DNA from: Candidatus Saccharimonadia bacterium
Lineage (GTDB): Bacteria; Patescibacteriota; Saccharimonadia; Saccharimonadales; 2-12-FULL-41-12
Assembly: GCA_963717365.1 (NCBI GenBank)
Contig: OY970327.1
Span: 720,348-784,347 of the forward strand
Reading direction: 5' to 3'
Length of the DNA: 64,000 bases
Below are positions 12,700 to 53,223 of this stretch, one piece after another. The notes under the pieces are model-generated. The model was not told the origin of the DNA. It did no database searches and was given only the letters and a program-made list of their open reading frames with translations. The position numbers and the translations under genes are program-made. Numbering within the stretch: the first letter of the stretch is position 1; the number at the start of each line of letters is the position of its first letter.

Positions 12700-12708
12700 A
12701 AGTAGGCC

Positions 12709-13161: not shown

Positions 13162-13219
13162 AATTACTACTTAATTATATCAGAGAAACAACCAATATAT
13201 CTGTTTACAGCTAACTGAT

Positions 13220-13585: not shown

Positions 13586-14131
13586 AATATAATCAAAGTA
13601 ATAATTTTGTAGTGCAATTTTATATAAATAGAGCCCTTAACTTAGAGGGCTCTATTTATATAATTCTAAGGTGCCGTTGGGACGATAAAACCGCTCAATT
13701 AAATTACTTTATAGCGCTTATCGTCCACTTGGCTTTGACTGACCGCTCACTCATGCTTTAGGCAATTGTGAGCGACGATTGGTTATGGTTGAAATCTTTG
13801 TGTTACGGCATTTTTTTACTTTTTGTTTTTACGGTTTACTGTCTACAGCCTACTACGGATATTGATTTTTGTCAATACATATTAGTTGTAATACAAACTA
13901 CATTACAGATAAGGAGATATTAGTAACTACTCGTATAACAGTTGTAATTAGTAGTAATTATAACATCAATAATTTTAGAGAAAAATTCATTATCACGATG
14001 TTCCGGCCGTAATTAATCGCTTAACAAGGCTTTTTAGGCAGCAAAAATACCGCGTATTAACGTCTAGATTTTATATAGATTTAATCTACAAATGAGCACT
14101 TTTATGCGCCAAGCCGCTTTATTCTAAATAC

Positions 14132-37021: not shown

Positions 37022-38626
37022 TTAATCTGAAATAATGGGGTCGTCTTTGATGACAGCTTTTTCGGTAACATCGAACTTATCAAGGTATTTTCCGCGGAAT
37101 AAGCGGGTCTGCGCCACTAGGGCGGCCATGGAGTTATAAACAATCGTGGTTATTGGCAGCAGCGCCCACTGGAATACCATCAAAACGGTGCGGTGATGCT
37201 TGTAGCGGGCCGGTTTGGGCGGCAGCGACTTGAAACTGAGGAACATGGTAATAATCAGGCCGATCAGGGCAACCTGCTGGATACGGCTGGCGACTTCCGG
37301 CAGCTGATTTGAGCCGATATCATCAGGATTAAAGAACACCGGTACAAATGCCGAGAAAGCCAGCAGCAGCGGACCGGTAGCCCAGCTGACATGGTTCTCT
37401 ATCAGACGGGCCAGGCGCGGAATTGATTTTCTTTTCGGGACGTCATTGGGCTCCAGAAAGGCCTTGGTCCAGACATATGCAATATCGGAGCACCCCCAGG
37501 CCCAACGCCGGATCTGGATAAACTGGGCCTTTAGAGTACGCCGATACCCGCTGGCCAGCACGGCATCCTGATAGATCGGGACATAGATCGGATACACCTC
37601 GTAGCGGCCGTCGTAGCGGAAGAAAGAACGCCAGAACTGGTGGCCGTCTTCTACAATCGTGCGGACGCTCCAAAAGTCGGTGTCAATCAACGCTGCCATG
37701 CTCTGGGCGTGCGATGCAAAGTTGCGGATTGCGTGCGGACGCAGACTTAGCACCAGGTTCCAGAAGGAGTTACCGGTGGCTATCACACGCATCAGGGCTG
37801 GAACGTCCCAGATATTATTGGTAAAGATCGGGATCGGCTGGAATGAGACCGTTTTTGGCTCCGGACACATAGAGAAAGTGTAAGTCAGTGCCCCCAGATA
37901 GTTCTTATGCGGCCGGTTGTCAGAATCAAGCGTGGTTACCAACACATTTATGGGGTCAATTTTGCGTTTTTTCAGCTCTTTTTGAAGTTCCCGGCCGGCA
38001 AATGTTACGTTGCCACCCTTGCCTACTACCTCGTTCTTCATGCCGTCCGGGTGCGCTACGGCACGGGCAAACATAAACTTATCCCCGTATTCACGAATTA
38101 GATCAGTCGCGGTTTTCTTGATGTCCGGACCGCCCCGCTCCTCATAAGCGATGAACAAAATGACTTTTTTCATATCGTAATTAGAGTCCAGAACTGCCTG
38201 GATGGTCGGTTCGATGATGTCGCGGCTCTCGTTGTAGGCCGCCACGATGAGAGCGTGGATTGTTTCACTTGGTGTTACGGCGCCCGGAAGCACTTCAAGC
38301 CGCTCAACATTCGCTTTGTGCCACTTCGGCACACCTTTAACGCTTACAACCCCCCGCTCCACGTCATCCAACAATTCTTTCCAGGGCAAACGTTCGTGCA
38401 ATTTCATCGTCCGGTATCCCTGAACTACCCGCAAATTCAACCCCACGCCCCTGAAAAACCACAAAAGTATGTAGGAAATGATGAAAAAGGCGGTTAGCCG
38501 CGGATCAATTAAGCTCAATATAAATGGCAGTGCCAGCAACGAATAACTAAGCATAGCCGGCAGCCGTTCCAGCCAGCGGTAGGACCGGGTCTTCTCTGAT
38601 TGCAGGGGTATTTCAATATTTTTCAT
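37022..38626 (-). CDS. family-2 glycosyltransferase, membrane-embedded processive type (QxxRW)
   Basis: Multiple TM helices at both ends. GT-A core with D/DxD pattern (AAYNESRD..., LDSD) and QIRRWAWG (QxxRW), characteristic of cellulose/chitin/hyaluronan-synthase-like GT2 enzymes. Confidence 0.75.
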   Translation of the reverse strand: MKNIEIPLQSEKTRSYRWLERLPAMLSYSLLALPFILSLIDPRLTAFFIISYILLWFFRGVGLNLRVVQGYRTMKLHERLPWKELLDDVERGVVSVKGVPKWHKANVERLEVLPGAVTPSETIHALIVAAYNESRDIIEPTIQAVLDSNYDMKKVILFIAYEERGGPDIKKTATDLIREYGDKFMFARAVAHPDGMKNEVVGKGGNVTFAGRELQKELKKRKIDPINVLVTTLDSDNRPHKNYLGALTYTFSMCPEPKTVSFQPIPIFTNNIWDVPALMRVIATGNSFWNLVLSLRPHAIRNFASHAQSMAALIDTDFWSVRTIVEDGHQFWRSFFRYDGRYEVYPIYVPIYQDAVLASGYRRTLKAQFIQIRRWAWGCSDIAYVWTKAFLEPNDVPKRKSIPRLARLIENHVSWATGPLLLAFSAFVPVFFNPDDIGSNQLPEVASRIQQVALIGLIITMFLSFKSLPPKPARYKHHRTVLMVFQWALLPITTIVYNSMAALVAQTRLFRGKYLDKFDVTEKAVIKDDPIISD

Positions 38627-39499: not shown

Positions 39500-39576
39500 G
39501 GGCTCGTGGTGTAGAGGCCTAACATGCCTCCCTGTCACGGAGGAGATCGCCGGTTCGAATCCGGTCGGGCCCGCCA
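39500..39576 (+). tRNA. tRNA-Asp (anticodon GTC)
   Basis: GGGCTCG-TG-GTGT-AGAGGCCTA-ACAT-G-CCTCC-CTGTCAC-GGAGG-AGATC-GCCGG-TTCGAAT-CCGGT-CGGGCCC-G-CCA. Confidence 0.85.
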
Positions 39577-41079
39577 ATTCGGATTTTTGCTGTTGTGACG
39601 CAGCACAGAAAGTGGCTCTCTCACTGTTAGAGCCACTTTTTTGTTACCCAAAGTCCAGTTCGAACCTAGCATCAGCATAATTTGTCGTCGTTCGTTGTCA
39701 TTTCCATGCTTAAACGATGCACCAAGGTTCACAACGCCTGTAAATACCTCTGAAGCTAGTTCTAACCAGCGTTCGGCATCTTGAGTAGATTGTTCAATCA
39801 GTTGATTAGTTCGAGCCTGGGTTGCTTCATGCTCGGCTACACGGCTCTTGTAGCGTTCTGGTGATATGGTTCTAGTCTCTAGGGCTTCGCCCAGTGCTGC
39901 AATCTTATCAGTGGCTTCCTTGTAGTCCTTTTGCCATACAGCAAGATGCTGGTTACGTTGTTTTAGCCTCTCATCATGGTAGTTCCGTATCAACTCTAGG
40001 CATTTAGCACTCTCTTCTGCAGTCATTTCAAACTCTGACACCCGTGCTTGTATTTCAGCCTCAATAGCATGTCTGGCTAGTTGTGGCTGCTTGCAGTTCT
40101 TGACCTTACTTTTATGGGTGCAGACATAGAACTCGTAATACTCAACACTACCATCAGCGAGCGTCTTAGCTTTCGTATAGGCAGTGATATTAAATCCACA
40201 CTCCTCACAAACTAACACGCCTTTATATGGGTAATTCAGTTTGGCAGTATTTGTCCTTTTCACGGGCTTAATCCAGCCCATAGATACTTGTGCCTGGGTG
40301 TATATATCTACTGAAATTAAGGGCTCTTACGTGCCTTGTTGCCACTCTTCAGCTCCATACTTGAAAATACCTGTATACGTCCTGCGGTGCAGTAAGTCGG
40401 CAAGCGTGTTTTTACTCAAGGTTTTGCCAGACTTTGATTTCAGACCAACCGATATAGCCATCTCATACAGGTCATGCAGCGTGTATTGTCCAGTTGCTGC
40501 CGCTTTGAAAAGCTGAACTACTTTTGGTCCATCTACAGGGTCAGGAGCTATGTTACGCTCTCCAGGTTTGATGATAGCGTTTGTATAGCCTAGCGGTGCT
40601 GGTCCAGGGTACTGTCCACGGGCTCGTTTAGTCTCAAAGCCCTCTTTTACCTGTACGCTCAAGTCATCGTTATTTTTCTTAGCCAGTGCTAGTTCAATCG
40701 CAAGCACCATTTTATCGTCTGGAGTATTCCTATAGGTACGAGACGGCGTGTGTATTGCTAATAGCTTTCCTGTATCAAGGGCGTAGATAATTCTGCCGCC
40801 ATCGACAGGGTTACGGCTAAGCCTACTCAACGCCCAAACTGATATGTACCTAGCTTCTCCAAGCTCGATGCGGTCCATCTTATCGTTAAATATAGGGCGT
40901 CCTGGCTGCTTTGCACTCCGTTCTTCGGCTGGTAGGTATATGGGTATCAGGTTGTTGCGTTCGATGATGTGTTGAACTTGCGTGTCCTGCTTCTGAATTG
41001 AGAGTGACTGCCTATCTTCACGGTCCTGAGAGCGTCTCAGGTAAACAAAGGTCTTTGATTTTATGTCGTCTGGCTTCAT
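39535..41079 (-). pseudogene. large serine recombinase interrupted by a single in-frame TAA (N-terminal resolvase domain 41079-40327, C-terminal zinc-ribbon/coiled-coil part 40281-39535)
   Basis: The N-terminal ORF has a resolvase catalytic region (FVYLRRSQDREDRQSLSIQKQ) and a recombinase domain. The downstream ORF is in the same frame and has a CxxC...C zinc ribbon and coiled coil. The only interruption is TAA at 40327-40329; read through it, the frame is continuous (...QQGT*EPLISVDIYTQAQVSMGWIK...). The 3' end overlaps the tRNA-Asp 3' half. Confidence 0.7.
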
Positions 41080-41366
41080 ATGCAGTTATCTCCCGCCGAT
41101 GTAAGCCTAGCAGACATATTATCAGCGGGAAGTAACTGGTCTGCTAGGACTTTGTTATGGGCTTTACTATAGCCTTTACCATTTTGCCAATCAATTGAAC
41201 CACCATATTTATGGCGGTACTCTATATCAACCATCAAGGTTAATAGGTTAAGAAGATTTGTACTGTCAGTCGAAAGTTCGTTGAGCTTTAGACCTGAGCT
41301 TAAATCTTTGTCTATAGTGTCTGCAAGCGAGTGTTTCGCTCGTCGTCTGGGTATGCCACTGGGCAT
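41076..41366 (-). CDS. hypothetical small protein upstream of the recombinase (possible directionality factor)
   Basis: 96-aa ORF overlapping the recombinase start by 4 nt. No recognised domain. Confidence 0.45.
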   Translation of the reverse strand: MPSGIPRRRAKHSLADTIDKDLSSGLKLNELSTDSTNLLNLLTLMVDIEYRHKYGGSIDWQNGKGYSKAHNKVLADQLLPADNMSARLTSAGDNCI

Positions 41367-41553
41367 TTAATCCTTTCCGACCAAAACACACGTTGAACGT
41401 GTGCATTGTCCAGAACGATTGCCATCTTGACGATTTTCGCAACTGCTGGCAGCTAGTTTTGTGCTGGCTATTTAGCCCAGACTTAAAGTCTTTACACCTT
41501 AGTAACTGTTACTTGGTGCTTTAATGTACCCCTTAATTATACCACCAGACTGG

Positions 41554-43161
41554 TTAAGTTTTAGCGATAGTACCCAAAAACTTACCTAAGTCAGTATTCT
41601 CAATTTCAGACTTCTGCATCGCTGCAGCAATAACCCAGTTTTCGTTCTTTCCCCAAGCAGGATTGATGTCAGCAAGCTTCTGATATTCACTAAGTTGCTG
41701 AAATTTATCACTTTTAACTTCTTGAACTGCTCGTTCAGTCAGATAATTTTCTGTTGCACGTCTTTCCAGAACATGACAATCAATTTTCAGCCCTTTACAT
41801 ACCTTTACGAAGTCTCGTCTGTCTTGGCTAAGAGTGTCAGTTATTGCAGTTTTCTCGCTATCGATAAGACAAAATATATTTGTTGATAGCCGAGTTAGCT
41901 CGCTAAGTTCATGTTTAAATTTACCGTTTATTAGTGATGCTCCCCCGAGCGATAACAACACCACTTTATGGTCTAGTCCGTAGAATTTAAGGAACTGTTG
42001 TATGGTTTTTACTTCAGTTGGACCTTCTACCAAAAGAACCTTATCAAAGCCCAACTCTCTATAGCCAGAAAAGCTCATTTCACCCAAAAGCTCTACAAGA
42101 TTTTCAGTTGCTTCGTAGGCTTTAACGTATCGTTTTTTATCTTTTCTGATGACTGAGTATAGCTTGTCACTCGCAGACCTTCCCAGACCTACACTATGAG
42201 TTGCGAACAACATTCCTTCAGAAGCATACGAACCTAGAGTGGTTAAAAAGTCTAGTTGAAGAGATGGGTGTAATCCAAGCTCGGGCTCATCAATCAGTAT
42301 GTAAGTGGGTTTTCGTATAAGTGCATTTGCCAGAACCATAATAAATTGTGATAGACCAGAGCCAACTTCATGAAGTTTGTAAGTATCGCCGTTGATGTTG
42401 AGCTGAAGGGTTCTCTCGTCATTAGAAGCATCAATAGTGAGCGTATCAAAACCAAATATTCTCGTAAGTTCCTTTTCAAGCGTAAGTATTGCTCTATGCT
42501 GTGCCTTCTCAGGTCCTGTTTTATAACCACGCCATCGCTTAATAAAAGCCTCTCCAACTTGTATGTCAAAGTAGTCTTCATTATGTCCAATATTTATCGT
42601 ATTGCGGAACGGTCCAACATAGAGACTTCGTGCAATTTTATCAGCCGCCGTTACAAGCTGTGATAAGTTTGTATGATACTTTCCGCTAAAGTGTAATCTG
42701 TTGTCACTCCCATAGCTTACTGTCTCTCCATTAGGGTCTAGCATTGGTCCACCACTTTCAGCAACTTTTGCTGACCAATTTGTCGTACCTTTATGTATCG
42801 TTATAAAAAGCATGTCAGCATACTCAAGTGAGCCACTTTCCGCTTTTACGTCGTCAGGTATATCTATCTTGATTTCAATCTCGATTGGACCATCAACGAA
42901 ATCATTAAAGATTTCTTGCGGGTCGTAGATATGCTGAACATTAAAGCTTTGCGAGCCTTGCAGTACTTGTCGAAATTCTGGGCTTCCAGGCGTGCCTATT
43001 TGTTGGAATATATGTCTAAGCTCTACAAAGAACTTCAAGATTGTTGATTTACCAGAGTTATTTACCCCTAGAAAACCAATTACTTCTTTATCTAAAGTGA
43101 GCTCTAAGGGCTGCTCTCTAGTAAAGCATCTGTAATTCTTAATCTTTAAGTGGACCTTCAT
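41554..43161 (-). CDS. OLD-family ABC-type ATPase with C-terminal TOPRIM-like nuclease domain
   Basis: Walker A FLGVNNSGKSTILK. ABC signature/Walker B YILIDEPELGLHPSLQ with H-loop FATHS. C-terminal VLLVEGPTE...CLIDSE is a TOPRIM-type glutamate and acidic pair as in P2 Old/GajA. 535 aa. Confidence 0.7.
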   Translation of the reverse strand: MKVHLKIKNYRCFTREQPLELTLDKEVIGFLGVNNSGKSTILKFFVELRHIFQQIGTPGSPEFRQVLQGSQSFNVQHIYDPQEIFNDFVDGPIEIEIKIDIPDDVKAESGSLEYADMLFITIHKGTTNWSAKVAESGGPMLDPNGETVSYGSDNRLHFSGKYHTNLSQLVTAADKIARSLYVGPFRNTINIGHNEDYFDIQVGEAFIKRWRGYKTGPEKAQHRAILTLEKELTRIFGFDTLTIDASNDERTLQLNINGDTYKLHEVGSGLSQFIMVLANALIRKPTYILIDEPELGLHPSLQLDFLTTLGSYASEGMLFATHSVGLGRSASDKLYSVIRKDKKRYVKAYEATENLVELLGEMSFSGYRELGFDKVLLVEGPTEVKTIQQFLKFYGLDHKVVLLSLGGASLINGKFKHELSELTRLSTNIFCLIDSEKTAITDTLSQDRRDFVKVCKGLKIDCHVLERRATENYLTERAVQEVKSDKFQQLSEYQKLADINPAWGKNENWVIAAAMQKSEIENTDLGKFLGTIAKT

Positions 43162-44354
43162 TTTTGTTCCACACGTACCAGTCTCGCCAAGTTAAAGCCA
43201 CTGATGTCTATGCTACTTTTACCGTTAATAGCCATTTGTGATAGCACCTCACCAATAGCTGCTGAGTGCTTGAAGCCATGTCCTGAGCAGGGCGACGCAA
43301 TGATTACGTTCTTGTGGTCTGGGTGAAAATCAATCACGAAGCGGCTGTCTGGAGTTGAAGTATAAAGGCAAGATTTTGCTTTAACGCATTTGTTACTGAG
43401 TGCTGGGAAACGGTCTTTAACATAGCGTTCATACATCTGGTCGATTTCGGCTTGCGTGACCTCACGGCTAACAGTATCTGGCGTAGTTTCACTTGTATAG
43501 TCTTCTGTGGCAATCTTTGCACCACCGTTAGGACCGTCCACCATCGGAAAACCGTATATAAAGTCGTCAGCCCCACCGCCAAACTCCCATATATAAACGG
43601 GCATGTTCTTAAACAGCTCGTATTGTGACTTGTCTTTAAGGTCAAACCAGTAAAGCACCTGGCGATAAATCTTGAACGAAGAAGCAAACTCAGGAATTAG
43701 ACTATTTACCCAAGGTCCTGCCGCAACTATCACTTTCTTCGCAGTATAGGTGTCCTTATTAGTCTTTACTGTGACGGAATTGTCGTCAGCTTGGTATGAC
43801 AGTACCTCTTCGTTTAGGCTGAGCATTGCTCCGTACTTAGCTGCCAGGCTGAGCTGTGCTTCAATACACTTCTCAGGTCGCAGAAAGCCAGCTTCAGGCT
43901 CAAAATAGCCATCTTCTAAACCAGATAACCCAAGTTGCGGGTAACGAGCCTTAATTTGTTCAGTCGTTAGGGTTTCATGCTGAATATCGTATTGTTTTGC
44001 TGAAGCAACCGTCTGATTTAAGAAATCATTGATACCATGCTGCCCCTGACCACCTTGAATAGCCATGATAAGCCCACCACAGCTGTTTAATAGTTCATAA
44101 TCCACCTCTTGTTCAATCTCACGCCAAATCTCGTGAGAACGAAGCACCAAAGGTACATAATCAGCACCCTCGCCAATCGCCAGGCGAGTTATTCGAGTGT
44201 CACCATGAGTTGAGCCGTATCCATGTGGTGGAGCGTACTGGTCTATGCCAAGCACGTTAGCACCTGATTTTGCGAGCTGGTAAGCGGCAGCACTACCCAT
44301 TGCACCTAAACCAATTACAATTACGTCAAACTCTTTACTCATTGCACTTATCAT
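43158..44354 (-). CDS. FAD-dependent amine oxidase of the monomeric sarcosine oxidase / N-methyltryptophan oxidase family
   Basis: DVIVIGLGAMGSAAAYQLA (GxGxxG dinucleotide fold). C-terminal SPCSGHGFKH is the covalent-flavin Cys motif of MSOX/MTOX. Overlaps both neighbours by 4 nt. Confidence 0.75.
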   Translation of the reverse strand: MISAMSKEFDVIVIGLGAMGSAAAYQLAKSGANVLGIDQYAPPHGYGSTHGDTRITRLAIGEGADYVPLVLRSHEIWREIEQEVDYELLNSCGGLIMAIQGGQGQHGINDFLNQTVASAKQYDIQHETLTTEQIKARYPQLGLSGLEDGYFEPEAGFLRPEKCIEAQLSLAAKYGAMLSLNEEVLSYQADDNSVTVKTNKDTYTAKKVIVAAGPWVNSLIPEFASSFKIYRQVLYWFDLKDKSQYELFKNMPVYIWEFGGGADDFIYGFPMVDGPNGGAKIATEDYTSETTPDTVSREVTQAEIDQMYERYVKDRFPALSNKCVKAKSCLYTSTPDSRFVIDFHPDHKNVIIASPCSGHGFKHSAAIGEVLSQMAINGKSSIDISGFNLARLVRVEQK

Positions 44355-44785
44355 ATAACAGATTGACCACTATTTCTGCTCTCGTTTCTCTTCTGCTCAC
44401 GCTCCCAGTGCTGATGCAGCATCTCTAGACCTTTTTTTAGCTCCTCTTCGGTGTATTTTTCATCTGGTGGGACTTGAGGACTAATTTGGTACTCAACTGG
44501 CTTACCAAACTCATCTCTGGCCTTGCGTTCTAGCCACCATTTAGCGGCCGCCATGTCACCCTTAGCGATAGCCTGGGCAACAATACGCTTTGCGTTTACT
44601 GTGACCTGGCTTTGAGCCTTTGCCATTGTGTCAGCAAATTGCTCATCAGACCGTACGCGACTGTAGTACGCCTCGTGAGATATACCAGATTGCCAACACG
44701 CTTCACGGACTGACATACCGTCGCCCAAACAGGTCATTAATAAGCTGACAACCTTACTGGTTATTACTGTGGGACGGCCACTCAT
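44351..44785 (-). CDS. HTH protein resembling phage terminase small subunit N-terminal domain
   Basis: HTH segment (MSVREACWQSGISHEAYYSRV) and an AAAKWWLERKARDEFG motif of the kind seen at the end of TerS-type HTH domains. First gene of the overlapping three-gene operon. Confidence 0.5.
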   Translation of the reverse strand: MSGRPTVITSKVVSLLMTCLGDGMSVREACWQSGISHEAYYSRVRSDEQFADTMAKAQSQVTVNAKRIVAQAIAKGDMAAAKWWLERKARDEFGKPVEYQISPQVPPDEKYTEEELKKGLEMLHQHWEREQKRNESRNSGQSVI

Positions 44786-44859
44786 AATAAGCCTCTGTTA
44801 TGCCAGTAAATATAGTCGGGCGGTAAGTCTGCTGTATTACTAATACTCTCAGACGTATG

Positions 44860-44906
44860 GACAAAGTAGTTCCATACCTGTTCCGCTATGGTCCGCCAAA
44901 TTATTT
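44860..44906 (+). repeat. 47-bp direct repeat R1 (ends tccgccaaat, resembling the tRNA-Asp 3' end)
   Basis: gacaaagtagttccatacctgttccgctatggtccgccaaattattt is ~75% identical to R2 at 46211. Confidence 0.55.
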
Positions 44907-44941
44907 ACATCTTAAATGTTTAATTATATAGTAATTTTATT

Positions 44942-45580
44942 ATGAACACTTTAAGAATTTCTCCAGAGCTTGCGATAAGCCCGCTAGAACGGGAAATGCT
45001 GTTGTGCCAAGATGCTGCTTACCTCGAAACTGAACCGATTAGGACATTAGCTTATGGTAAGTTTAATATAGCTGTATCATATACTAGGGTAAAATACGCT
45101 GACTGGTTAATCCCAAGTAAACCAATGCAAGTGGATGACGAAGAAGTTGTAGTAGAAACATTGCATTTTGACACTTGCACAGTTAACTTTAATGGCAAAG
45201 GAAAGATTGGGATGCATGAAATCGGTTTGCACGCGGTTAGAGGCCTAATAGGTTTTAAAGTTGATGAGCCTGTTCTCTACGATATAGTTGATGAAGTTTT
45301 TACAGAAGAAGGCCCTCGTTTAGTATTGAACACTTCGAGCCCAGAGGATATACAAGCAGGCATCGTGCGAAATAGCAGATACATAACAAAAGTAATCGAA
45401 GATTGGGAAGAAAAAAAGCGTCAGGGGTTAACCGATTACCCCATCTCAGCGCGAGCTACAGAGGAGTTAACTGCTGCAGTGATTAATGGAAAGCCGCTTA
45501 CCCAAGAGAAATTTAGAGACATGGTTGCAAACTTATTCTCTGACCCAGATTACGCAGCCAGATATTACGGATTTAAATAA
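44942..45580 (+). CDS. hypothetical protein
   Basis: 212-aa ORF. No recognised domain. Confidence 0.55.
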   Translation: MNTLRISPELAISPLEREMLLCQDAAYLETEPIRTLAYGKFNIAVSYTRVKYADWLIPSKPMQVDDEEVVVETLHFDTCTVNFNGKGKIGMHEIGLHAVRGLIGFKVDEPVLYDIVDEVFTEEGPRLVLNTSSPEDIQAGIVRNSRYITKVIEDWEEKKRQGLTDYPISARATEELTAAVINGKPLTQEKFRDMVANLFSDPDYAARYYGFK

Positions 45581-45750
45581 GCAACAACACTCCGAAATCC
45601 TCCTCGGTGAAGCAAGGAACGGAGATAAAACTGCGCTTGCACAGTTTTATCGAGTACCGCAGGAAGAAGCACAAACACAAAGTTTGTGCGCTAACCGGTC
45701 AGATTCACAAATAAATTGACATTTAAACAATATTATGCTATTATGTAGAT

Positions 45751-46143
45751 ATGAATGAAAAAAATCCAAACGCAGTAACCCCAGAAACAGTTATTAGAGA
45801 GCATCCTGGATACCGGTACCGAGGAAGCGATAATACCCAATATCAAATATTTACAAAAGCCATGCCTAAATTCCCTCACCAGACTAACGGTGCAACGTTA
45901 GCCGAACTTAGAGGGCAAGGTTTATCCGATGATGAAATCGGTGATCAATTTGACAAGAGCCACAAAGAAGCTATCGAGAGACACAGTAAAGAATTCTGGG
46001 AACAAGTGGCTGAAGACCCTGAATCATTAACCAGAGAAGATCCTCTTGCCGGTGATGTAGACCCTACTGGCGGCTATTATGAAGAGCCACCGAATCCAAT
46101 GGATGCCCACAGAGATGAAGTTGCCCGCCAGCATGGCGACTAA
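45751..46143 (+). CDS. hypothetical protein
   Basis: 130-aa ORF followed by a terminator. Confidence 0.55.
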   Translation: MNEKNPNAVTPETVIREHPGYRYRGSDNTQYQIFTKAMPKFPHQTNGATLAELRGQGLSDDEIGDQFDKSHKEAIERHSKEFWEQVAEDPESLTREDPLAGDVDPTGGYYEEPPNPMDAHRDEVARQHGD

Positions 46144-46170
46144 ACTATTGATTTAGCCTCACTTAATTGA

Positions 46171-46200
46171 CCGTCGGGTATGAATCGACGGTCTTTTTAT
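46171..46200 (+). terminator. intrinsic terminator
   Basis: gaccgtcg-ggtatgaat-cgacggtc followed by tttttatttg. Confidence 0.65.
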
Positions 46201-46210
46201 TTGTCTATGT

Positions 46211-46257
46211 GACAAAATAGTTCCACGCCTCTTCTACTACTGCCCGCCAAATATAAT
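46211..46257 (+). repeat. 47-bp direct repeat R2 (ends gcccgccaaat)
   Basis: gacaaaatagttccacgcctcttctactactgcccgccaaatataat. gcccgccaa matches the tRNA-Asp acceptor 3' strand. Confidence 0.55.
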
Positions 46258-46507
46258 CGTTTTTAGAGCTAGTGCTTTTATAGCTGAGAGTTTGTGTGAT
46301 GCCGAAAAAGTTTAAAAAATAAACGCGATTATTGCTATTACTCCGATTACGGCAAGTATAGTTATTATTGTATTCCTATTCATTGTAGTACCCCTTAAAT
46401 TTAAGTGCATGAATTGTATCATAGCAATGTATATATTTACTGCTAACTATATGACTGTTCGAAAATCCGCCTCGATTCCACGCCAGCATTGACAAAAATC
46501 CTACTCT

Positions 46508-47146
46508 GTGGTAATATTCTTTTATTGGAATAAAACAAAAATGAATAATCACCCAGATAATCCAAGCTTTCCTCACGAAATAATCCAGCCGCCCGACCAG
46601 ACTACCTTACAAAATATAGTTGATGGAATAGCTGAGTTAACACAAGATCAATTTGATTTCGGCCCTGATCATGACTCTCTCCGGGCACGCGTACATGAAC
46701 CCGGATCTACTAAACAGGCGGGTACAGTATGCTCTTATAAAGTAGACGAGGAGGGTAATTACCCTCAGAATAAGGTTGCCAGTATACATTTGGCTGAGGA
46801 TGCTTCGCATTTCGGCGATAAGATACATACTAATTATACAATTATCAAAACCCCGGACGGCGATTTGTTTATAGAGAAAAACCTGAAAACTTCTAACCGT
46901 GCCGAGCAGAATATCCATCCTGCAAACAACGATGAAGTAGCAATTGAAGCTCTTAAGCTATTGGTAAGAGTAGTTCGTGAAGATAAAGCCGAAAAAATCC
47001 AGAATGCTATGGGGCTAAATTATGTTGATCACGATGAAGCAGCAGGTTTACTTGAAAGAGTTGGCAGGCTGAAACCTTTTGACGATCATGATATGGATAA
47101 GAAAACAGCTGAGTGGATACGACAATCAGGACCTAAGCTGCATTAG
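46508..47146 (+). CDS. hypothetical protein, distant member of a 3-gene paralogous family
   Basis: Shares TNYTIIKTPDGDLFIEKN and MGLNYVDHDEAAGLLERV blocks with the 47254 and 50112 proteins. The true start is probably the internal MNNHPDN. Confidence 0.55.
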   Translation: MVIFFYWNKTKMNNHPDNPSFPHEIIQPPDQTTLQNIVDGIAELTQDQFDFGPDHDSLRARVHEPGSTKQAGTVCSYKVDEEGNYPQNKVASIHLAEDASHFGDKIHTNYTIIKTPDGDLFIEKNLKTSNRAEQNIHPANNDEVAIEALKLLVRVVREDKAEKIQNAMGLNYVDHDEAAGLLERVGRLKPFDDHDMDKKTAEWIRQSGPKLH

Positions 47147-47253
47147 TCTGATTTGATCATTATATTCCAGACTTTTCACGGAATTTGGAAAATAGTCCCA
47201 GAGCGGTAATTCTGGGATCTTGACTATAGACATTTCGGAGTTTTTATTGTATT

Positions 47254-47775
47254 ATGTCTTTCATGAATCCGGAAAACTTTATAAATCCTCCCAAAAGCCA
47301 TCCTGAGATAGACTCAAATCCGGAGGCGGCGATGCGAGCCTCGCAAGAAACTCTTTATACATTACTGGAATGTATTGGGGGAGAACTCCTGCTTGCTTCT
47401 GAACCCATACATTACTCATCCAAAATCTTTCCCAAGGGCACGCTTGGCAAGGCGCAGCCGGAAGCTATCGGACATATCCTTCAGTGCGAAACTACCAACG
47501 GCTCCGATACAACGGTGAATACAAATTACTATATTTTAGCTACGCCCGACGGCCTGCATATTGAAAAAAATGCCGGGTTATATGAATCTATAATTATCGG
47601 TCATGGCGGCCCCGTTTGCGGCAAAGAACGAGCTGAAAAGCTTGGACGGATCATGAGTAGTTATAAAGCACGTGAAGAGTCGCGCAAGCTACAAAATGAA
47701 CTTGGCCTCAGTTTTGTCTCTGAAGCTGAAGCCCAGGGCCTAATCGATATTCTCTCTGGCAATACTGAAGCCTAG
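47254..47775 (+). CDS. hypothetical protein, paralog family member
   Basis: ~50% identical over its full length to the 50112 ORF (GTLGKAQPEAIGHILQCET... vs GTLGTSQPEAIGHIHQCET...). Confidence 0.65.
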   Translation: MSFMNPENFINPPKSHPEIDSNPEAAMRASQETLYTLLECIGGELLLASEPIHYSSKIFPKGTLGKAQPEAIGHILQCETTNGSDTTVNTNYYILATPDGLHIEKNAGLYESIIIGHGGPVCGKERAEKLGRIMSSYKAREESRKLQNELGLSFVSEAEAQGLIDILSGNTEA

Positions 47776-47839
47776 GGTATATAAAATTCCACTCCCGCCC
47801 CTTAACTATTTACACTGCAAGCTAAATATGATATAGTCT

Positions 47840-48871
47840 TTGATTATGTTAGAAAACTCTGGTGAATTTTCGCACGCATATGAAATAGAAGAACTTCTTC
47901 ATATAGCGAGCGCCGTTGCAGAACGTCAGTTGCAGGATATGGAAGCAGCCCAAAGCATAGCATCAGAAATTACCGGGCAACCTGCCCCTGAAGTACCCTT
48001 AGAACTTAGACACAAACTAGTTACAGCTACTGCGGCTATGAATATAACCCGCCTGGAGACGCCCGAAGCATGCATAAGTTTTGAGACTGGTCTGGATGCG
48101 GTAATGGAAGGAAGTTATGGTCTGCTAGCAGATATGGATAGCGCCGACGGAGAAGCAATTCCTGAATCACAGATCCGCCAATTCATGATAAATTTTGGTA
48201 ACACTATGCTAAATGAAATGGGTGTTAAAGAGGAAACAACTTCCGGAATATTCGCTAAAACGTTCATGGCCGCAAAAGTTATCGCCGAACAAAAAGGGGT
48301 CGGCGTTGCCCAAGTTTATCAAGATGAAGAGTTGTACAGCGAGACTTTCCGTCAAGCCTATACCCTTGTAGAATTCGCTACGCAACAGTTAGCAATGATG
48401 GACGGTATTTCAGAGAAAACCATGGGTAGCTTATTCGTTCATATGCTCAGTATTATAATACCCGAGGAAGAGCAAGCAGAGATGGACGAAGAAGAGATGG
48501 CTGAAATGATAGCAGAACTTCAACTTGATACTGAAGTCCAGACAGCCTTAACAGAGGCAACGGAACTAGGCCTGAAAGTTGCCAGGCATGTGGCTGTCTC
48601 GCAGATTATTCGTTTCTGGGGCAGCGATTCCTTACGAGACTTGCCTAAAGAAATCAAACAGAAATTAGAGATAACTGATAAACCATCAGTTATACAAATA
48701 GGTGGACTTGTCATACTCGGTGCGTCAGCCGAACAGGCCGATCAGCTTAAAATGCGAGAATCATTTGTTAACCGTTATTTTGAGGAGCGTGACTGGGACG
48801 CCAGCAATCCAACTATGGAGCAGGTGATGGAAGTTCGTTCCCAGCCTGGCTGGCAGAATCCTTCCACTTAA
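47840..48871 (+). CDS. hypothetical acidic protein
   Basis: 343-aa ORF. No recognised domain. Confidence 0.55.
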   Translation: MIMLENSGEFSHAYEIEELLHIASAVAERQLQDMEAAQSIASEITGQPAPEVPLELRHKLVTATAAMNITRLETPEACISFETGLDAVMEGSYGLLADMDSADGEAIPESQIRQFMINFGNTMLNEMGVKEETTSGIFAKTFMAAKVIAEQKGVGVAQVYQDEELYSETFRQAYTLVEFATQQLAMMDGISEKTMGSLFVHMLSIIIPEEEQAEMDEEEMAEMIAELQLDTEVQTALTEATELGLKVARHVAVSQIIRFWGSDSLRDLPKEIKQKLEITDKPSVIQIGGLVILGASAEQADQLKMRESFVNRYFEERDWDASNPTMEQVMEVRSQPGWQNPST

Positions 48872-48935
48872 TAGTCCAGATCCACCTTTTGCTCTGCCCG
48901 CAGAAATTGAAACACCGCCCAAAAGTAGTAATTTT

Positions 48936-49943
48936 CTAAGCTAGTAATTTACCAAGCACCGGTCCAAACTTAAATAAATTGTGGCCGGCTATTGCTTTAA
49001 TACTCCCATTCTCGTAAATTTGATATGAATCAGCTGGCCCCTCGATATACGTTGCTGTGCACTTAACTGTATGTAGCTCGCCCGGGTTTAATGCAGGTAT
49101 TGCAACAGCAACGTAATCTCTAATACGCTGCTTGTTTTTCTCCCATAACATGTGGTCGAATTGCAAAAGATTATCCTGCTTATTTGATAATCCAATCGTG
49201 TAAAGAGATTGGTTTATTGGAGAACCATATACATGTTCTCCGTATTGTCCGCTTGTATCGCTAAAACACGGCTGCACAGCAAGAGACTGGTAAGCCTGGA
49301 ACGTTAACCGAGTATGAAGCCGTTTCTCAATTTTAATATCAATCCCAACCTGCTTAGCAAGATCAGGCGTTTCTGTTCCTGCGGCTACTATTAATCGCAC
49401 GCATTTATAAATATTGTCAGAGGTTTTAATAATAATTGAACTACCCCTCTCTTCTATACTTAAAACTGTATCATGAATAATTCTAGGACGATGTTTTTCC
49501 TTAAGGAAACGAATAATAACATTAGCTCTTATGGCGCCGGCGCTTACTTCAAATAGTGCTTGTCCCTTAATAGCTGAATGGCTGTTGGTTAGTTTTTTCC
49601 AGTCATCTTTATTAAGCAGCGAGCATCTAATCTTATTCTTTTTACAGAACTCAGCTTGCTGTTCTATGTCTGACCCAAAAGTTAACTGGCCACATTTTAT
49701 AATAAGTTCGGTTTTAAATTCTTCTTCCCATTGTCGCCATAAGTTAAGGGCTTCTTGAGCCAAAGCAATCTGACTATGAGTTTGGTGGCGCTGGCGATAA
49801 ATTCTTGTGAAGCCCGATGATTGGCCGCAGCCAGGTATATTCTTCTCAAGACAGACTACATCTGTGCCTTGCTCAGCAATGTAATCAAGAGCGGAAAGCC
49901 CGACGATACCAGCCCCTATTACAATAGTGTCTACAGTTTTCAT
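48936..49943 (-). CDS. FAD-dependent oxidoreductase (DAO family)
   Basis: IVIGAGIVGLSALDYIAEQG dinucleotide-binding motif at the N-terminus. DAO-like length (335 aa). The only minus-strand gene in the 44.9-63.5 kb block. Confidence 0.65.
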   Translation of the reverse strand: MKTVDTIVIGAGIVGLSALDYIAEQGTDVVCLEKNIPGCGQSSGFTRIYRQRHQTHSQIALAQEALNLWRQWEEEFKTELIIKCGQLTFGSDIEQQAEFCKKNKIRCSLLNKDDWKKLTNSHSAIKGQALFEVSAGAIRANVIIRFLKEKHRPRIIHDTVLSIEERGSSIIIKTSDNIYKCVRLIVAAGTETPDLAKQVGIDIKIEKRLHTRLTFQAYQSLAVQPCFSDTSGQYGEHVYGSPINQSLYTIGLSNKQDNLLQFDHMLWEKNKQRIRDYVAVAIPALNPGELHTVKCTATYIEGPADSYQIYENGSIKAIAGHNLFKFGPVLGKLLA

Positions 49944-50111
49944 GCGGTAAGTATATCAGCACAAGTCTTCAAAAATCCGTCCCTCTGCCTGATTGATTGA
50001 GTTATCTTACAAAATCACATACTTAAGTCGGATCTCGTTAAATAGTTCGGAAACTCCCTCAATATCCCGCCAGTATAGACATAGTATCATTTATAGTGTA
50101 TTATATGTTTT

Positions 50112-50639
50112 ATGACTCCCGAAAATCTAATAAATCCGCTGGCGGATCATCTTGAAGTAGCATCTAACCCAAATGCTGTGAGACGACCCTCGCAGGTAAC
50201 TCTTCGTACGCTGCTCGAATGTATGGGAGTGCAGATCAATCTTACCTCTGAGTCCATCAACTATTCTTCACAGATATTTTCTAAAGGCACGCTTGGTACA
50301 TCACAGCCTGAAGCCATTGGACACATTCATCAATGCGAGACAAGTGGCCAAACTGACACAACACTTAATACCGATTATTTTATTTTAGATACGCCCGACG
50401 GTCTGCTTATTGAAAAACGCGGTCGACTATTCGAATCTATTATTCTTGCGCATGGCGGATTCACCAGTGCTAAAGAACGAAATGAAAAGTTTGGACGGAT
50501 TATGAATAGTTTTGCGGCGCAGAAAGAGGCGCATCATCTTGAAGATGAACTGGGACTCAATTTTGTCTCAGAAGATGAAGCTCAGAACCTAATAAATATT
50601 CTCTCCCGTAAGACCGATGGTCCAGGAGCAAGTGTCTAA
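50112..50639 (+). CDS. hypothetical protein, paralog family member
   Basis: Paralog of the 47254 ORF (see above). Confidence 0.65.
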   Translation: MTPENLINPLADHLEVASNPNAVRRPSQVTLRTLLECMGVQINLTSESINYSSQIFSKGTLGTSQPEAIGHIHQCETSGQTDTTLNTDYFILDTPDGLLIEKRGRLFESIILAHGGFTSAKERNEKFGRIMNSFAAQKEAHHLEDELGLNFVSEDEAQNLINILSRKTDGPGASV

Positions 50640-50668
50640 ATTAAAGACACATTGTCAGAAGTAATATC

Positions 50669-50941
50669 ATGAATAAAAAACGTATCGCGGAAATTGCAAC
50701 AGTCCTTGCCTTTGCTACCCCGCTGGCCTATGCCGACAATAGCTTAGCTACTACTCAACACGCGGCTGACCCACCCCCAGTCATCACAGAATATCAGCCG
50801 CCAATGGCCATGAGTAATACGGCGGAATATGCTCTTTTGACTGGCGTACTTGTTGTTGCCGCAGCCTTCGCTGCCAGTGGCAAATACTTTCGACCTGACG
50901 AACCCGATGATGAAAACCAAAGAATCGATAGCGAACTTTAA
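50669..50941 (+). CDS. small secreted protein
   Basis: Signal peptide MNKKRIAEIATVLAFATPLAYA. 90 aa. Confidence 0.5.
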   Translation: MNKKRIAEIATVLAFATPLAYADNSLATTQHAADPPPVITEYQPPMAMSNTAEYALLTGVLVVAAAFAASGKYFRPDEPDDENQRIDSEL

Positions 50942-50969
50942 TTACCTACAAAGTAATACTTAATTTGAA

Positions 50970-51668
50970 ATGGCAAAACGCACAATATCTATAGAGTCTA
51001 ATAACCAGCAACTTGATGGCAGACTTTTTATACCTACCCAAGCTGAAGGGAGTGCCATCCTTTTTATACATGGATTTGGGGCGCGCGGCCGAACTTGCGA
51101 GCAATACGCCAAACGCTTGGTAAAAGCCGGCATCGTGAGCCTGACTTTTGATTTGTCGGGTCATGGAGACAGCACTGGAAACAGTAGCGACCTCTCGGTA
51201 AACGACCACGTATCAGATGTTGATAGCGCCTTTGATTATTTAAGGTCGCAAAATGAGGTCGCCATAGACCCGAAACGTATTGGTATAGCGGGAATGAGCT
51301 ATGGAGGATACTTAGCTTTGCTGCCCAGTGGCACCAGAAACGCCAAAAGCTTACTCCTCCGCTCACCCCCGCTTTACCCCAAAGCGCTGCAAGGGATTGC
51401 CCGCCGCGAATACACCGATGAACAGGCACTGCAAAGCGTCCCAGAGTTAGATAATCCTGCTCTGCAGGCACTTCATACTTTTGCCGGTAAGGTATGTTTG
51501 GTGACTTCAGAGTTAGACACCGTTGTAGCACCTGTTTTCACCAATCTTTACGCGCAAACAGCTATAAGTTGCGAAGAATTTGTGCTCAAAGGAGCTCACC
51601 ACTCGCTTGACTCCTTCTCTCAGCAGCAATTTCTGCCTATTGTAGATACTTGGGCGGCTGAATTATAG
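50970..51668 (+). CDS. alpha/beta-hydrolase fold protein (dienelactone hydrolase / peptidase S9-like)
   Basis: GxSxG nucleophile elbow GMSYGGYLA, HGFGARG oxyanion region, C-terminal His (GAHHSL). Confidence 0.65.
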   Translation: MAKRTISIESNNQQLDGRLFIPTQAEGSAILFIHGFGARGRTCEQYAKRLVKAGIVSLTFDLSGHGDSTGNSSDLSVNDHVSDVDSAFDYLRSQNEVAIDPKRIGIAGMSYGGYLALLPSGTRNAKSLLLRSPPLYPKALQGIARREYTDEQALQSVPELDNPALQALHTFAGKVCLVTSELDTVVAPVFTNLYAQTAISCEEFVLKGAHHSLDSFSQQQFLPIVDTWAAEL

Positions 51669-51691
51669 TATTGTAAATTTATGTAAAGAAA

Positions 51692-52222
51692 TTGTATATG
51701 TCTGAACGCACCTATAACTCTGAAACAACTGATGCTCGCTTTCGTGTGCAGTACCCTCATATAAGCGGCCACTATGCTGTCATTGACACGGCTCCTCATG
51801 GCAGTCTTGTTGCGCTAGGTAACGAAGAGCACGCACTGGGTGCGGTTGAAGCTTTAAATGCAGCAACAAATCCTGCAATCGACGAGGTTGATGCTGTGAT
51901 TGCGCTTCGCGACGTGAATCCTGCCCATAGGTGGCGAGTAATGGGATACTTGACAACTTTAGTGAGAAGAGAAATTAGAGAAGGTGCGGAACCGCAGTTA
52001 GACACCTCAAGCCTTGATGCGCTCGACGATGAAACAGCGCATCTCATAACAGACGCTTTAATGGCAGCTGTCTATCCGCGCCCTACCGAAAATGACTTAA
52101 ACTTATTAGGGGTAGATCTGTTAGAAAATCCTAACGATGCGCTCAAGATGGTACCCGATGAACAAAAATGGCGCGTTTCATTAACACTTGCAAGGCTATT
52201 ACGACAATCTCAGTCGCACTAG
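51692..52222 (+). CDS. hypothetical protein
   Basis: 176-aa ORF. Confidence 0.5.
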   Translation: MYMSERTYNSETTDARFRVQYPHISGHYAVIDTAPHGSLVALGNEEHALGAVEALNAATNPAIDEVDAVIALRDVNPAHRWRVMGYLTTLVRREIREGAEPQLDTSSLDALDDETAHLITDALMAAVYPRPTENDLNLLGVDLLENPNDALKMVPDEQKWRVSLTLARLLRQSQSH

Positions 52223-52386
52223 ACATATCATAACTATCTAAAATTCGACTTCAGTCTTAGGATAAAAATTCCAGCTCAATACATTACAGTTCACCATTTT
52301 TTGACTAAATCTCTATTTTGTGGTATCTTATATTTATCCTTCTGTTGAGTTATCTCCAGAGGTGTTTTTTAACAAGCTCTCTGTTT

Positions 52387-52439
52387 GATGTGAATGAGCA
52401 AAAGCGTATCTTTAAAGTACTTTTTTGCTCATTCACATC
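52387..52439. other. 17-bp perfect inverted repeat (18 with a G:U) with 17-18-nt loop
   Basis: gatgtgaatgagcaaaag ... cttttgctcattcacatc. No U-tract follows on either strand. Sits at the left edge of a GC3-rich segment. Confidence 0.6.
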
Positions 52440-52470
52440 CATCGACAACCGCAGTTCTTAAGAGACCTCA

Positions 52471-52701
52471 TTGAAGGTTTCAGGGTTCGAACAGACCGTG
52501 CTCAGACGCATGGTGCCGTGGTTTCTACTCAACATGGTTATGTTCGTAATCATCTTGATCCTGTTTGCCCTCGGCGCGATCGCTTTCGGACGTTTCCTTT
52601 CCCTGTTCGCCCTCGGCGAGCTTGGCTTCGGCATGGCTGGAAACCAAGAAGCGACGCAAAGAATGCGACAGCAAGGTGTCGTATCTGACACCAAGCAGTA
52701 G
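52471..52701 (+). CDS. small two-TM membrane peptide (GC3-rich coding)
   Basis: TTG start in the ORF track; alternative internal ATG gives MVPWFLLNMVMFVIILILFALGAIAFGRFLSLFALGELGFG... Codons are strongly G/C-ending, unlike flanking genes. Confidence 0.4.
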   Translation: MKVSGFEQTVLRRMVPWFLLNMVMFVIILILFALGAIAFGRFLSLFALGELGFGMAGNQEATQRMRQQGVVSDTKQ

Positions 52702-52764
52702 GACTCATCGCCGTACAACATCCGGCCAATAGGCCAACACCTCAACACCAAATCGGAGGCAGTT

Positions 52765-52968
52765 ATGGGCATTCAGGCGCTCGCAGCCATCATCATCGTC
52801 ATCGCAGTTGCCGTCGGCATCATCATCGCCGTCACCGGTTCGCTCACCACAGGGGTGATCATCGCCGTTGTCGGCTTCGCCATCGGAGCGGTCATGGGCA
52901 TCATCAACGTCGTCAAGCTCTGGCGCAACCCGAGCAAGATGATCCCCAAGTTCCCCAAGAACTGGTAG
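52765..52968 (+). CDS. small two-TM membrane peptide (GC3-rich coding)
   Basis: GGAGG 6 nt upstream of ATG. MGIQALAAIIIVIAVAVGIIIAV...VIIAVVGFAIGAVMGIINVV, basic C-terminus. All Ile codons are ATC and all Val/Ala/Gly codons are G/C-ending. Confidence 0.5.
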   Translation: MGIQALAAIIIVIAVAVGIIIAVTGSLTTGVIIAVVGFAIGAVMGIINVVKLWRNPSKMIPKFPKNW

Positions 52969-53223
52969 TCGTAGCAGAGAGCTACCAAGAGGAAAAGAAC
53001 AGATTTGAGTGCAGTATTGCTCTCGTCCTATTATTTTTCTCTTGGCAGTTCCCTAAGCTTACTAAGTTAGCCGGCTTAGGCAACTGCCATTATTAATTAC
53101 CCAAACCAAAATTATAATTTATCGGGCCTTATTGATAAACTCTATATTTAAGATATTTTGCAATAATATCGCTATTATGGTATTATAAGATAAATATAAT
53201 CATTCCTTAGGTAAAGGCCACAA

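Follow-up and report, generated by a model that had tools for sequence, protein, structure and literature searches.

The stretch of DNA analysed here, hereafter the window, comprises 64,000 nucleotides (nt) of contig OY970327.1, from assembly GCA_963717365.1 of a Candidatus Saccharimonadia bacterium. It is a piece of bacterial chromosome with a GC content of 45.6%, which holds gyrB, thrS, the RNase P RNA and four tRNAs. The closest matches of gyrB, 67-88% identical, come nearly all from metagenome-assembled genomes (MAGs) of Candidatus Saccharibacteria or Saccharimonadales, and by this marker the window is part of a Candidatus Saccharibacteria chromosome. Saccharibacteria are ultra-small episymbionts whose accessory genes are mostly uncharacterised; most genes near the segment of interest gave no match in Pfam or NCBIfam. 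This segment (52387-52990) carries two small open reading frames, ORF1 and ORF2, rich in GC at third codon positions (GC3), and a preliminary description had taken it for a recent acquisition from a high-GC donor. We favour, with moderate confidence, a different reading: a group of Saccharibacteria (Saccharimonadales) would possess a native, self-contained expression cassette of accessory nature, and the segment would be its cargo. By comparison between genomes, a promoter and a leader motif on one side, a complementary trailer and a two-hairpin 3' element on the other (Table 1), form a conserved frame, and the GC3-rich orphan genes lying between them are unrelated from one genome to the next.

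Table 1. Positions of the cassette features in the window (UTR, untranslated region; TM, transmembrane; aa, amino acids).
Feature	Position	Strand	Description and basis
Promoter, sigma-70-like	52301-52329	+	TTGACT, 17 nt, TATCTT, with TG; predicted by consensus scan
Small 5' hairpin	52339-52362	+	Putative; minimum free energy (MFE) fold of the predicted transcript
Leader motif TTAACAAGCTCTCTGT	52369-52384	+	Cassettes that differ in cargo are homologous on the 5' side up to this motif; it occurs once in the window
5'-UTR stem-loop	52387-52439	+	Hairpin of the preliminary description; arms GATGTGAATGAGCAAAA (52387-52403) and TTTTGCTCATTCACATC (52423-52439), between leader and ORF1
ORF1	52471-52701	+	76 aa from TTG, or 63 aa from ATG at 52510; predicted two-TM peptide
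Shine-Dalgarno sequence of ORF2, GGAGG	52755-52759	+	5 nt ahead of the start codon; read from the sequence
ORF2	52765-52968	+	67-aa two-TM protein with basic C-terminal tail; GC3 0.88; homologues found by phmmer
Trailer motif GCAGAGAGCT	52974-52983	+	Reverse complement of the leader core AGCTCTCTGT; start of the 3' homology between cassettes
3' element, hairpin P1	52987-53043	+	Loop carries a conserved TTGAGTGCAGTATTGCTCTC inner stem; alignment A4, five lineages
3' element, hairpin P2	53044-53088	+	GGCAGTTCCCTAAG ... CTTAGGCAACTGCC; probable transcript end

The contrast in composition between the segment and its surroundings, already pointed out in the preliminary description, holds. ORF2 is clearly an outlier (GC1 and GC2 are 0.50 and 0.40), and ORF1 is moderately raised, with a GC3 of 0.675 that reaches 0.76 within its hydrophobic (TM) part. 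The remaining 63 ORFs of the window average 0.44 (standard deviation 0.07, maximum 0.63), and among 436 chunks of 67 codons taken from other genes of the window the highest value is 0.73. Nor is the excess usual for membrane proteins, as 18 other hydrophobic segments of the window have a GC3 of 0.50 ± 0.11 and use ATC for 17 of 70 isoleucines. Isoleucine had been said to be encoded by ATC throughout the segment; the preference is strong, 16 of 17 codons in ORF1 and ORF2 together and 4 of 4 in ORF1, with a single ATT at codon 3 of ORF2. The other codon choices (GTC, GCC, GGC, AAG, CTC, CCC/CCG) resemble, as ATC does, those of high-GC genomes. On the minus strand, the ORFs 52458-52772 and 52773-52988 share their third codon positions with the plus-strand ORFs and are rich in Met, the mirror of the ATC runs; we rejected them as genes, considering them by-products of the third positions of the sense ORFs. 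The ordinary gene with the highest GC3 in the window (0.63, chunks up to 0.73) is a 534-aa ORFan with one N-terminal hydrophobic segment, at 37022-38626 on the minus strand; its orthologue in the related locus L081 (543 aa) has a GC3 of 0.35.

Two small two-TM peptides are encoded as described, of 63-76 aa and 67 aa, both predicted as hairpins by a Kyte-Doolittle scan, and neither matched Pfam, NCBIfam, PHROGs or PADLOC. ORF2 is hydrophobic over residues 1-53, with an interruption at GSLTTG; 14 of its 67 residues are Ile and its tail has five basic residues. A word-seeded search of 5.8 billion proteins returned nothing beyond ORF2 itself. An exhaustive phmmer search of 1.84 billion representatives found six small relatives (P0003-P0006, P0008 and P0009; E-values from 3e-13 to 6.5e-4), and a profile search of the 5.8 billion proteins added P0010-P0014, bringing the family to 12 members of 57-93 aa. 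The homologues are only 39-56% identical at the protein level. Residues G18, G30 and N48 are invariant (alignment A1), and the basic tail noticed beforehand turns out to be the family signature, (R/K)NPxKxxPK(S/N)W, found in ORF2 and in most members; P0006 has its first half only, P0008 and P0014 are without it. The family profile found no match in the PDB. By these searches ORF2 is a genuine conserved gene, founding member of a new and rare family of small two-TM proteins. It is predicted to adopt an N-in/C-in helical hairpin topology with a cytoplasmic basic tail, and the face of small residues in the second TM segment suggests self-association within the membrane.

ORF1 is probably a real gene. 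None of four start variants looked up is in the public protein collection, and its N-terminus shows a weak likeness to the first cargo ORF of locus L087 (BLASTP E-value 0.18). Homology to the small upstream ORFs of locus L090 was rejected, the similarity being not significant. We also rejected the idea that ORF1 and ORF2 are one gene split by a stop, since in L090 and L087 the coordinates put the tandem ORFs in frames that differ; between 52471 and 52968, ORF1 with its TAG, ORF2 and the 21 codons without a stop that separate them (GC3 0.67) share one frame, which was treated as a coincidence. Both ORFs contain internal direct repeats that match the TM segments, 70% identical in ORF2 (52781-52834 and 52862-52915) and 80% in ORF1 (52560-52589 and 52602-52631). 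This suggests that the helical hairpins arose by internal duplication, or else low-complexity codon runs mimic a duplication.

All homologues of ORF2 whose DNA was read sit on low-GC contigs (GC 0.42-0.49); homologues are found among housekeeping genes. Their GC3 is 0.55 in L081, 0.73 in L084, 0.74 in L087, 0.75 in L090, 0.88 in L092 and 0.54 in L094, and neighbour genes in L081, L084 and L087 range from 0.17 to 0.46. In L081, L087 and L092 the homologue is adjoined by GC3-rich ORFans without Pfam match. L081 is collinear with the window from 31 to 39.6 kb (miaA, thrS, tRNA-Val, nrdR, two ORFs, tRNA-Thr, tRNA-Asp); beyond tRNA-Asp come a GC-rich 214-aa ORFan and then the homologue of ORF2. L084 has its homologue between tRNA-Asp and tRNA-Thr. 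Moreover, positions 52297-52337 of the window align with the promoter of the L081 homologue with a local score of 32, against 16.2 ± 2.6 for shuffled sequences (0/500), so that, judging from this alignment, the two promoters are orthologous. The family amounts to about 12 clusters at 90% identity among the 5.8 billion proteins, as against more than 580 relatives of gyrB among species genomes. By these counts the unit is accessory and patchily distributed.

Pooled over the lineages, the cargo genes end in C for 76% of NNY codons and in G for 76% of NNR codons, against 40% and 38% in core genes. The proportion C/(C+G) at four-fold sites equals that of core genes, and we rejected on this ground a selection specifically for C-ending codons. 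A codon bias linked to high expression was rejected because ribosomal genes of L084 are GC3-poor (rplL 0.17, rplJ 0.35). High GC3 appears to be a trait of the cargo class, persisting over diverged lineages, and not the fading trace of one recent import. With homologues of 39-56% identity and a linkage to tRNA-Asp in three lineages, one ancient import should by now have taken on the composition of the resident genome; the excess would therefore be either maintained, by biased gene conversion or by selection acting on the mRNA, or renewed each time the cargo is replaced from a GC-richer pool, repeatedly. A second GC3-rich ORFan pair lies in L087 at 11180-13781, 3 kb past the homologue (178 aa, GC3 0.69, and 610 aa, GC3 0.78). 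It has a leader-like GTTAAGTTCTGTC, and it shares its ribosome-binding context, AAGGAGAATCATG, with the GC-rich 214-aa gene of L081. Relatives of the 610-aa protein are all distant (20-24% identity); they occur in uncultured gut phages and, within the plasmid collection, on replicons of Bacillus and Bacteroidota.

Cassettes of different content share the frame. L090 and L091, which carry the closest homologue of ORF2, show in order a promoter, a small hairpin, the leader, a hairpin of different sequence, three TM ORFs (44, 55 and 64 aa) and a 3' region homologous to 52974-53089. In L087 the frame encloses three genes, of 101, 157 and 64 aa. Scanning metagenomes with a pattern built from the 3' element yielded four contigs (L099, L100, L101 and L102); three of them, L099, L101 and L102, have the same promoter, leader and 3' element around an unrelated soluble ORFan of 124 aa (GC3 0.69). 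Local blastn of L090 against L099 aligns the 5' frame at 86% over 101 nt, ending exactly at the leader, and the 3' frame at 76% over 163 nt, from the trailer on, with no match between the frames; L099 against L087 gives the same pattern of conserved frames and unmatched interior. TTGAC(T/C) promoters occupy the same place in L090, L099 and L087. The leader 17-mer TTAACAAGCTCTCTGTT is identical in L090 and L099, and variants are found in L087 (TTAATAAGTTCTCTGT) and before the GC-rich 214-aa gene of L081 (TAGCTCTCTGT). The frame itself is not GC-rich: in the window its 5' part has a GC of 0.32 and its 3' part 0.44, and the cargo 0.53 (0.51-0.53 across four lineages).

The 3' element is not restricted to GC3-rich cargo. 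In the fourth contig, L100, it lies at 4-115 of the minus strand behind a membrane gene of ordinary GC, read as M50-peptidase-like from its HEYGHLW motif. Just upstream of it, GAACAAGGGTCTTCC resembles a leader fused to the trailer side with nothing in between, perhaps a frame devoid of cargo. Conversely, the ORF2 homologues of L081, L084 and L092 are followed by plain terminators, with no 3' element. Among viral contigs the 16-nt leader gave 30 matches, near our rough estimate for chance, none of them with the frame, and the 3' pattern gave no match.

These observations bear directly on the recent import proposed in the preliminary description. On that view a piece of about 550 bp was freshly taken from a donor of high GC and has not yet drifted to the base composition of its new genome; the Actinobacteria on which the episymbiont lives, or their phages, could be such a donor. 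Cultivated Saccharibacteria live on high-GC Actinobacteria, the codon choices are of high-GC type, every cargo gene is an ORFan, the cargo class is equally enriched in G and C at synonymous sites with a Lys/Arg ratio lower than in the core, and one weak member of the family, P0014, lies in an actinophage-like contig. However, no donor came to light: no high-GC relative of ORF2 was found by phmmer among the 1.84 billion representatives, by profile search among the 5.8 billion proteins, or in the phage, plasmid and viral-contig collections. In the plasmid collection this holds both for blastn with the segment and for tblastn with ORF2; in 50,697 phage genomes and in viral contigs tblastn matched neither ORF2 nor P0014. 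The foreign composition does not extend to the noncoding parts either, as the flanking promoter, leader and trailer are AT-rich and conserved over lineages. ORF2 itself is Ile-rich and its GC1 and GC2 are values of a mid-GC genome. Finally, the diverged homologues are all GC3-rich in low-GC genomes; two of them lie by the same tRNA-Asp, one with the orthologous promoter, which makes a one-off recent transfer unlikely. A recent acquisition is therefore not supported, and seems to us improbable.

The RNA was analysed on predicted transcripts, 52336-53095 in the window and 698-1230 nt when taken whole in four lineages. In the MFE fold of the window, leader and trailer form a helix between 52375-52384 and 52974-52983, with about 9.9 expected pairs in the partition function. 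The MFE structures of L090, L099 and L087 contain the same predicted pairing, across 500-1050 nt; over the four lineages, window included, 8.8-10.7 base pairs are expected, and in the prediction the pairing is nearly certain. In L087, where the leader reads AGTTCTCTGT and the trailer ACGGAGAAC, a C to T change in the leader is matched by a G to A change in the trailer, and with one G.U wobble the helix is preserved. In the 5' UTR of the window, CAGTTCTT (52452-52459) can pair without a mismatch with AAGAACTG, which belongs to the final codons of ORF2 (52958-52965). This pairing extends the leader-trailer closure in the predicted fold and was not found in L090. The mean unpaired probability in the predicted fold is 0.51 for the Shine-Dalgarno sequence and start of ORF2, and 0.37 for the start region of ORF1.

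The predicted 5' UTR also contains two hairpins. At the place of the small one, short hairpins also occur in L090, L099 and L087, with a sequence that differs from one locus to the next. The larger one, a perfect inverted repeat of 17 bp (or 22 nt at 91%), has a predicted folding energy of -29.4 kcal/mol and a z-score of -7.2. It had been presented as the left border of a foreign segment; the repeat is as perfect as stated, but it marks no border of foreign DNA, being inside the predicted 5' UTR, and it differs in relatives, L090 and L099 having unrelated hairpins at this site and L087 none. We consider it as a lineage-specific element, placed by the model just inside the leader-trailer closure. 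It was rejected as a terminator, as no U-tract follows it, and as a repeated or mobile element, as no second copy exists in the window or in 102 loci. Rfam returned generic hairpin matches only, all below threshold.

The 3' element, which folds into two hairpins, was aligned over five lineages. In the alignment 89% of the cells pair, against 82.5% in shuffled alignments (0/500) and at most 50.5% when the partners are slid. Eleven pairs of the whole structure change on both sides, 5 of them among the 12 pairs of helix 1 of P1, and the 14-mer GGCAGTTYCCTAAG of P2 is conserved in the five lineages. The table of pairs contains 27 G.U cells and 7 A.C cells; this excess favours an RNA on the plus (sense) strand, and we rejected on this ground the possibility that the element is an antisense RNA gene. 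A covariance model (R1) scores 104.8 bits over 52974-53089; elsewhere in the window, and in related loci totalling 410 kb, it detects no further copy, so that the element was also rejected as a common terminator.

Taken together, the favoured reading could work as follows. The whole cassette would be transcribed as one mRNA, the pairing of leader and trailer would close the message, with the 5'-UTR stem-loop inside the closure, and this closure of the ends would make the message more stable or serve as a gate for translation. In the membrane the peptides would form helical hairpins, the tail of ORF2 being on the cytoplasmic side, and probably self-associate via the Gly/Ala face of the second TM segment. 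As to its history, ORF2 was probably inherited at a position linked to tRNA-Asp, from which an island of about 12.7 kb carrying a serine recombinase would now separate it in this genome. To our reading such an architecture has not been described before; it is seen in four to five lineages, all by computation.

Several points weigh against this reading. The coverage of the frame is small, five lineages for the 3' element and four for the full frame, and transcripts, their ends and their folds are all predicted. Leader and trailer are themselves conserved, so that the independent support for their pairing comes down to one compensatory change and thermodynamics; the shuffle tests per lineage are modest (63, 17, 484 and 187 of 3000). 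ORF1 has no Shine-Dalgarno sequence, and the word-seeded search of 5.8 billion proteins found no homologue of it. The case for vertical descent at tRNA-Asp comes from three lineages; insertions are frequent at tRNA genes, so that independent insertions at tRNA-Asp may have occurred. The equal enrichment of G and C in the cargo, with its low Lys/Arg ratio, is the pattern expected from an origin in a GC-richer pool. Lastly P0014, the weakest and most divergent member of the ORF2 family (60 aa), is found on JGI contigs 3300071325 and 3300071358, where dozens of small genes are tightly packed on the same strand, with WhiB-like, NADAR and MazG-like matches and a faint Rpf-transglycosylase match. 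This context hints at phages of Actinobacteria as a reservoir, and is the sole hint of that kind.

The preliminary description had also likened the peptides to holin/antiholin, type I toxin or bacteriocin-like modules. The likeness of shape stands, together with one predicted 5'-3' helix of type I character, but the features of context that define these systems were not found. As a type I toxin-antitoxin module in the manner of hok/sok or aapA/IsoA, the cassette would make membrane toxins from an mRNA kept inert by 5'-3' pairing until it is processed; such 5'-3' interactions are documented for the aapA1 and hok mRNAs (PMC5416894). The small hydrophobic peptides, the long-range leader-trailer helix predicted in four of four lineages, the near-perfect 22-nt duplex of the 5' UTR and the structured 3' end of our cassette all go in this direction. 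At the opposite, soluble proteins (124, 157 and 214 aa) are encoded in this same frame, and the homologues of L081, L084 and L092 do without the 3' element. Type I toxins are usually shorter than 50-60 aa with one TM segment, whereas the present peptides have two TM segments each over 67 and 63-76 aa, and ORF2 a conserved tail motif. No antisense promoter faces the 5' region, the only promoter-like site of the minus strand directed into the cassette being at 53138-53111, and, judging from the G.U and A.C counts, the RNA of the 3' element is read from the sense strand. In the predicted fold the Shine-Dalgarno sequence of ORF2 is unpaired about as often as it is paired. A type I module is on the whole doubtful, an explanation that we would retain only as a minor one.

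That the two ORFs are holin and antiholin, or what is left of some other phage lysis cassette, is less probable still, and we rate it as very unlikely. Two small TM genes do stand in tandem, ORF2 has the generic shape of class II holins (two TM segments, a short loop, a highly basic C-terminus), which is not diagnostic, and in the phage-like contig of P0014 the faint Rpf-like transglycosylase match comes two genes downstream of it. However, no endolysin, terminase or other phage gene was recognised with Pfam and PHROGs among the ORFs scanned on either side, and PHROGs matched neither ORF1, nor ORF2, nor any of the seven relatives checked. The 50,697 phage genomes and the viral contigs gave no tblastn match, no dual-start motif is present, and the homologues stay among housekeeping genes. 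A class IIb two-peptide bacteriocin was rejected, neither ORF having a GG-leader and the scanned neighbours being without transporter domains. We rejected an integron gene cassette as well: the unit has its own promoter, its boundaries are AGCTCTCTGT and GCAGAGAGCT, and the sole recombinase found in the window is a serine recombinase 11 kb away. That the segment is an assembly artefact or a contaminant insertion, as a short deviant stretch in a MAG-derived chromosome and the start of a Logan contig about 50 nt upstream of the cassette promoter might evoke, is hardly credible, since separate assemblies from JGI, ENA, NCBI and Logan contain homologous cassettes that share its promoter, leader and 3' element, the noncoding parts have the resident composition, and the coordinates of that Logan contig span the segment plus the downstream gene.

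Beyond the native cassette that we favour, the frame might be a dedicated platform for gene cassettes, in which GC-rich orphans would replace one another and be expressed from end-closed mRNAs. The exchange would take place at the 9-12-nt inverted repeat of leader and trailer, or else, following natural transformation, by way of the homologous flanks. We consider this extension as unlikely on present data. If true, it would add a cassette system of a new kind, and in an episymbiont. In a bolder variant, the cargo might owe its GC-rich synonymous sites to an adaptation to translation by the high-GC actinobacterial host.

In the window tRNA-Asp (39500-39576) is followed directly by a large serine recombinase split in two ORFs, 40327-41079 with the Resolvase and Recombinase domains and 39595-40281 with a zinc-ribbon domain, then by an OLD/Gabija/PARIS-like ATPase (41554-43161), a DAO oxidoreductase and ORFans, over a region extending to 44785. 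Collinearity with L081 stops at this tRNA, and what follows looks like an integrated island with a defence gene. The sequence that follows the tRNA in L084 (CCA, then TTCGACT) recurs in the window at 52244-52251 (TTCGACT itself at 52245-52251), just upstream of the cassette promoter, and ATTCG is present at both putative junctions of the island, 39577-39581 and 52243-52251. An island of about 12.7 kb (39577-52245) would thus have been inserted between tRNA-Asp and an older, tRNA-linked cassette; this proposal is tentative, because the 8-nt match of the junctions is not significant alone. A Logan contig of run ERR12037361 begins at about 52246, and its start at TTCGACT may correspond to the right end of the island and to a polymorphism of presence and absence. 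Within the putative island, the 173-aa (47254-47775) and 175-aa (50112-50639) ORFs look like paralogous ORFans: they contain stretches about 75% identical (104 and 146 nt), at 47506-47768 and 50355-50617.

What had looked like a foreign blip becomes a unit that can be searched for, by its leader and trailer motifs, by the covariance model of its 3' RNA and by a new family of small membrane proteins. At this segment compositional deviation by itself would mis-call recent transfer. More generally, a class of GC3-rich orphan genes with a regulatory RNA architecture seems to be common to several lineages. If the frame mediates exchange of cargo or gated expression, it would give a handle on how genes are acquired and controlled in the reduced genomes of episymbionts; it could also provide a ready-made expression cassette for new genetic tools in the phylum.

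The cassette can be compared with several known systems. With class II holins, Pmp3/YqaE and GlsB/YmgE, ORF2 shares its size, the helical hairpin, the basic cytoplasmic tail and a helix face of small residues; it differs by the lack of any sequence or profile match (Pfam, PHROGs, PDB) and of a lysis-cassette context, and to our knowledge a RNPxKxxPKxW tail is not a feature of any of these proteins. Like integron cassettes, the unit has an interchangeable, mostly ORFan cargo of varied composition, a conserved platform and a palindromic boundary. However, each unit has its own promoter, a 9-12-nt inverted repeat stands in place of attC (GTTRRRY), there is one cassette per locus, and no integron integrase was found among the neighbouring genes scanned. 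The hok/sok and aapA1/IsoA1 modules (PMC5416894) resemble it by their small hydrophobic peptides, their structured UTRs and a predicted helix between 5' UTR and 3' end that closes the mRNA; on the other hand, in the cassette no antisense RNA gene was found, the helix lies off the Shine-Dalgarno sequence, the peptides are longer with two TM segments, and the cargo may also be soluble. Phage morons, finally, which sit between other genes as autonomous promoter-gene-terminator units, are likewise self-contained, with their own promoter, a structured 3' end, a composition unlike both neighbours and a patchy ORFan cargo; the cassette differs from them in lying outside any prophage, in its conserved frame, which is reused by unrelated cargo, and in a deviant composition limited to its coding parts.

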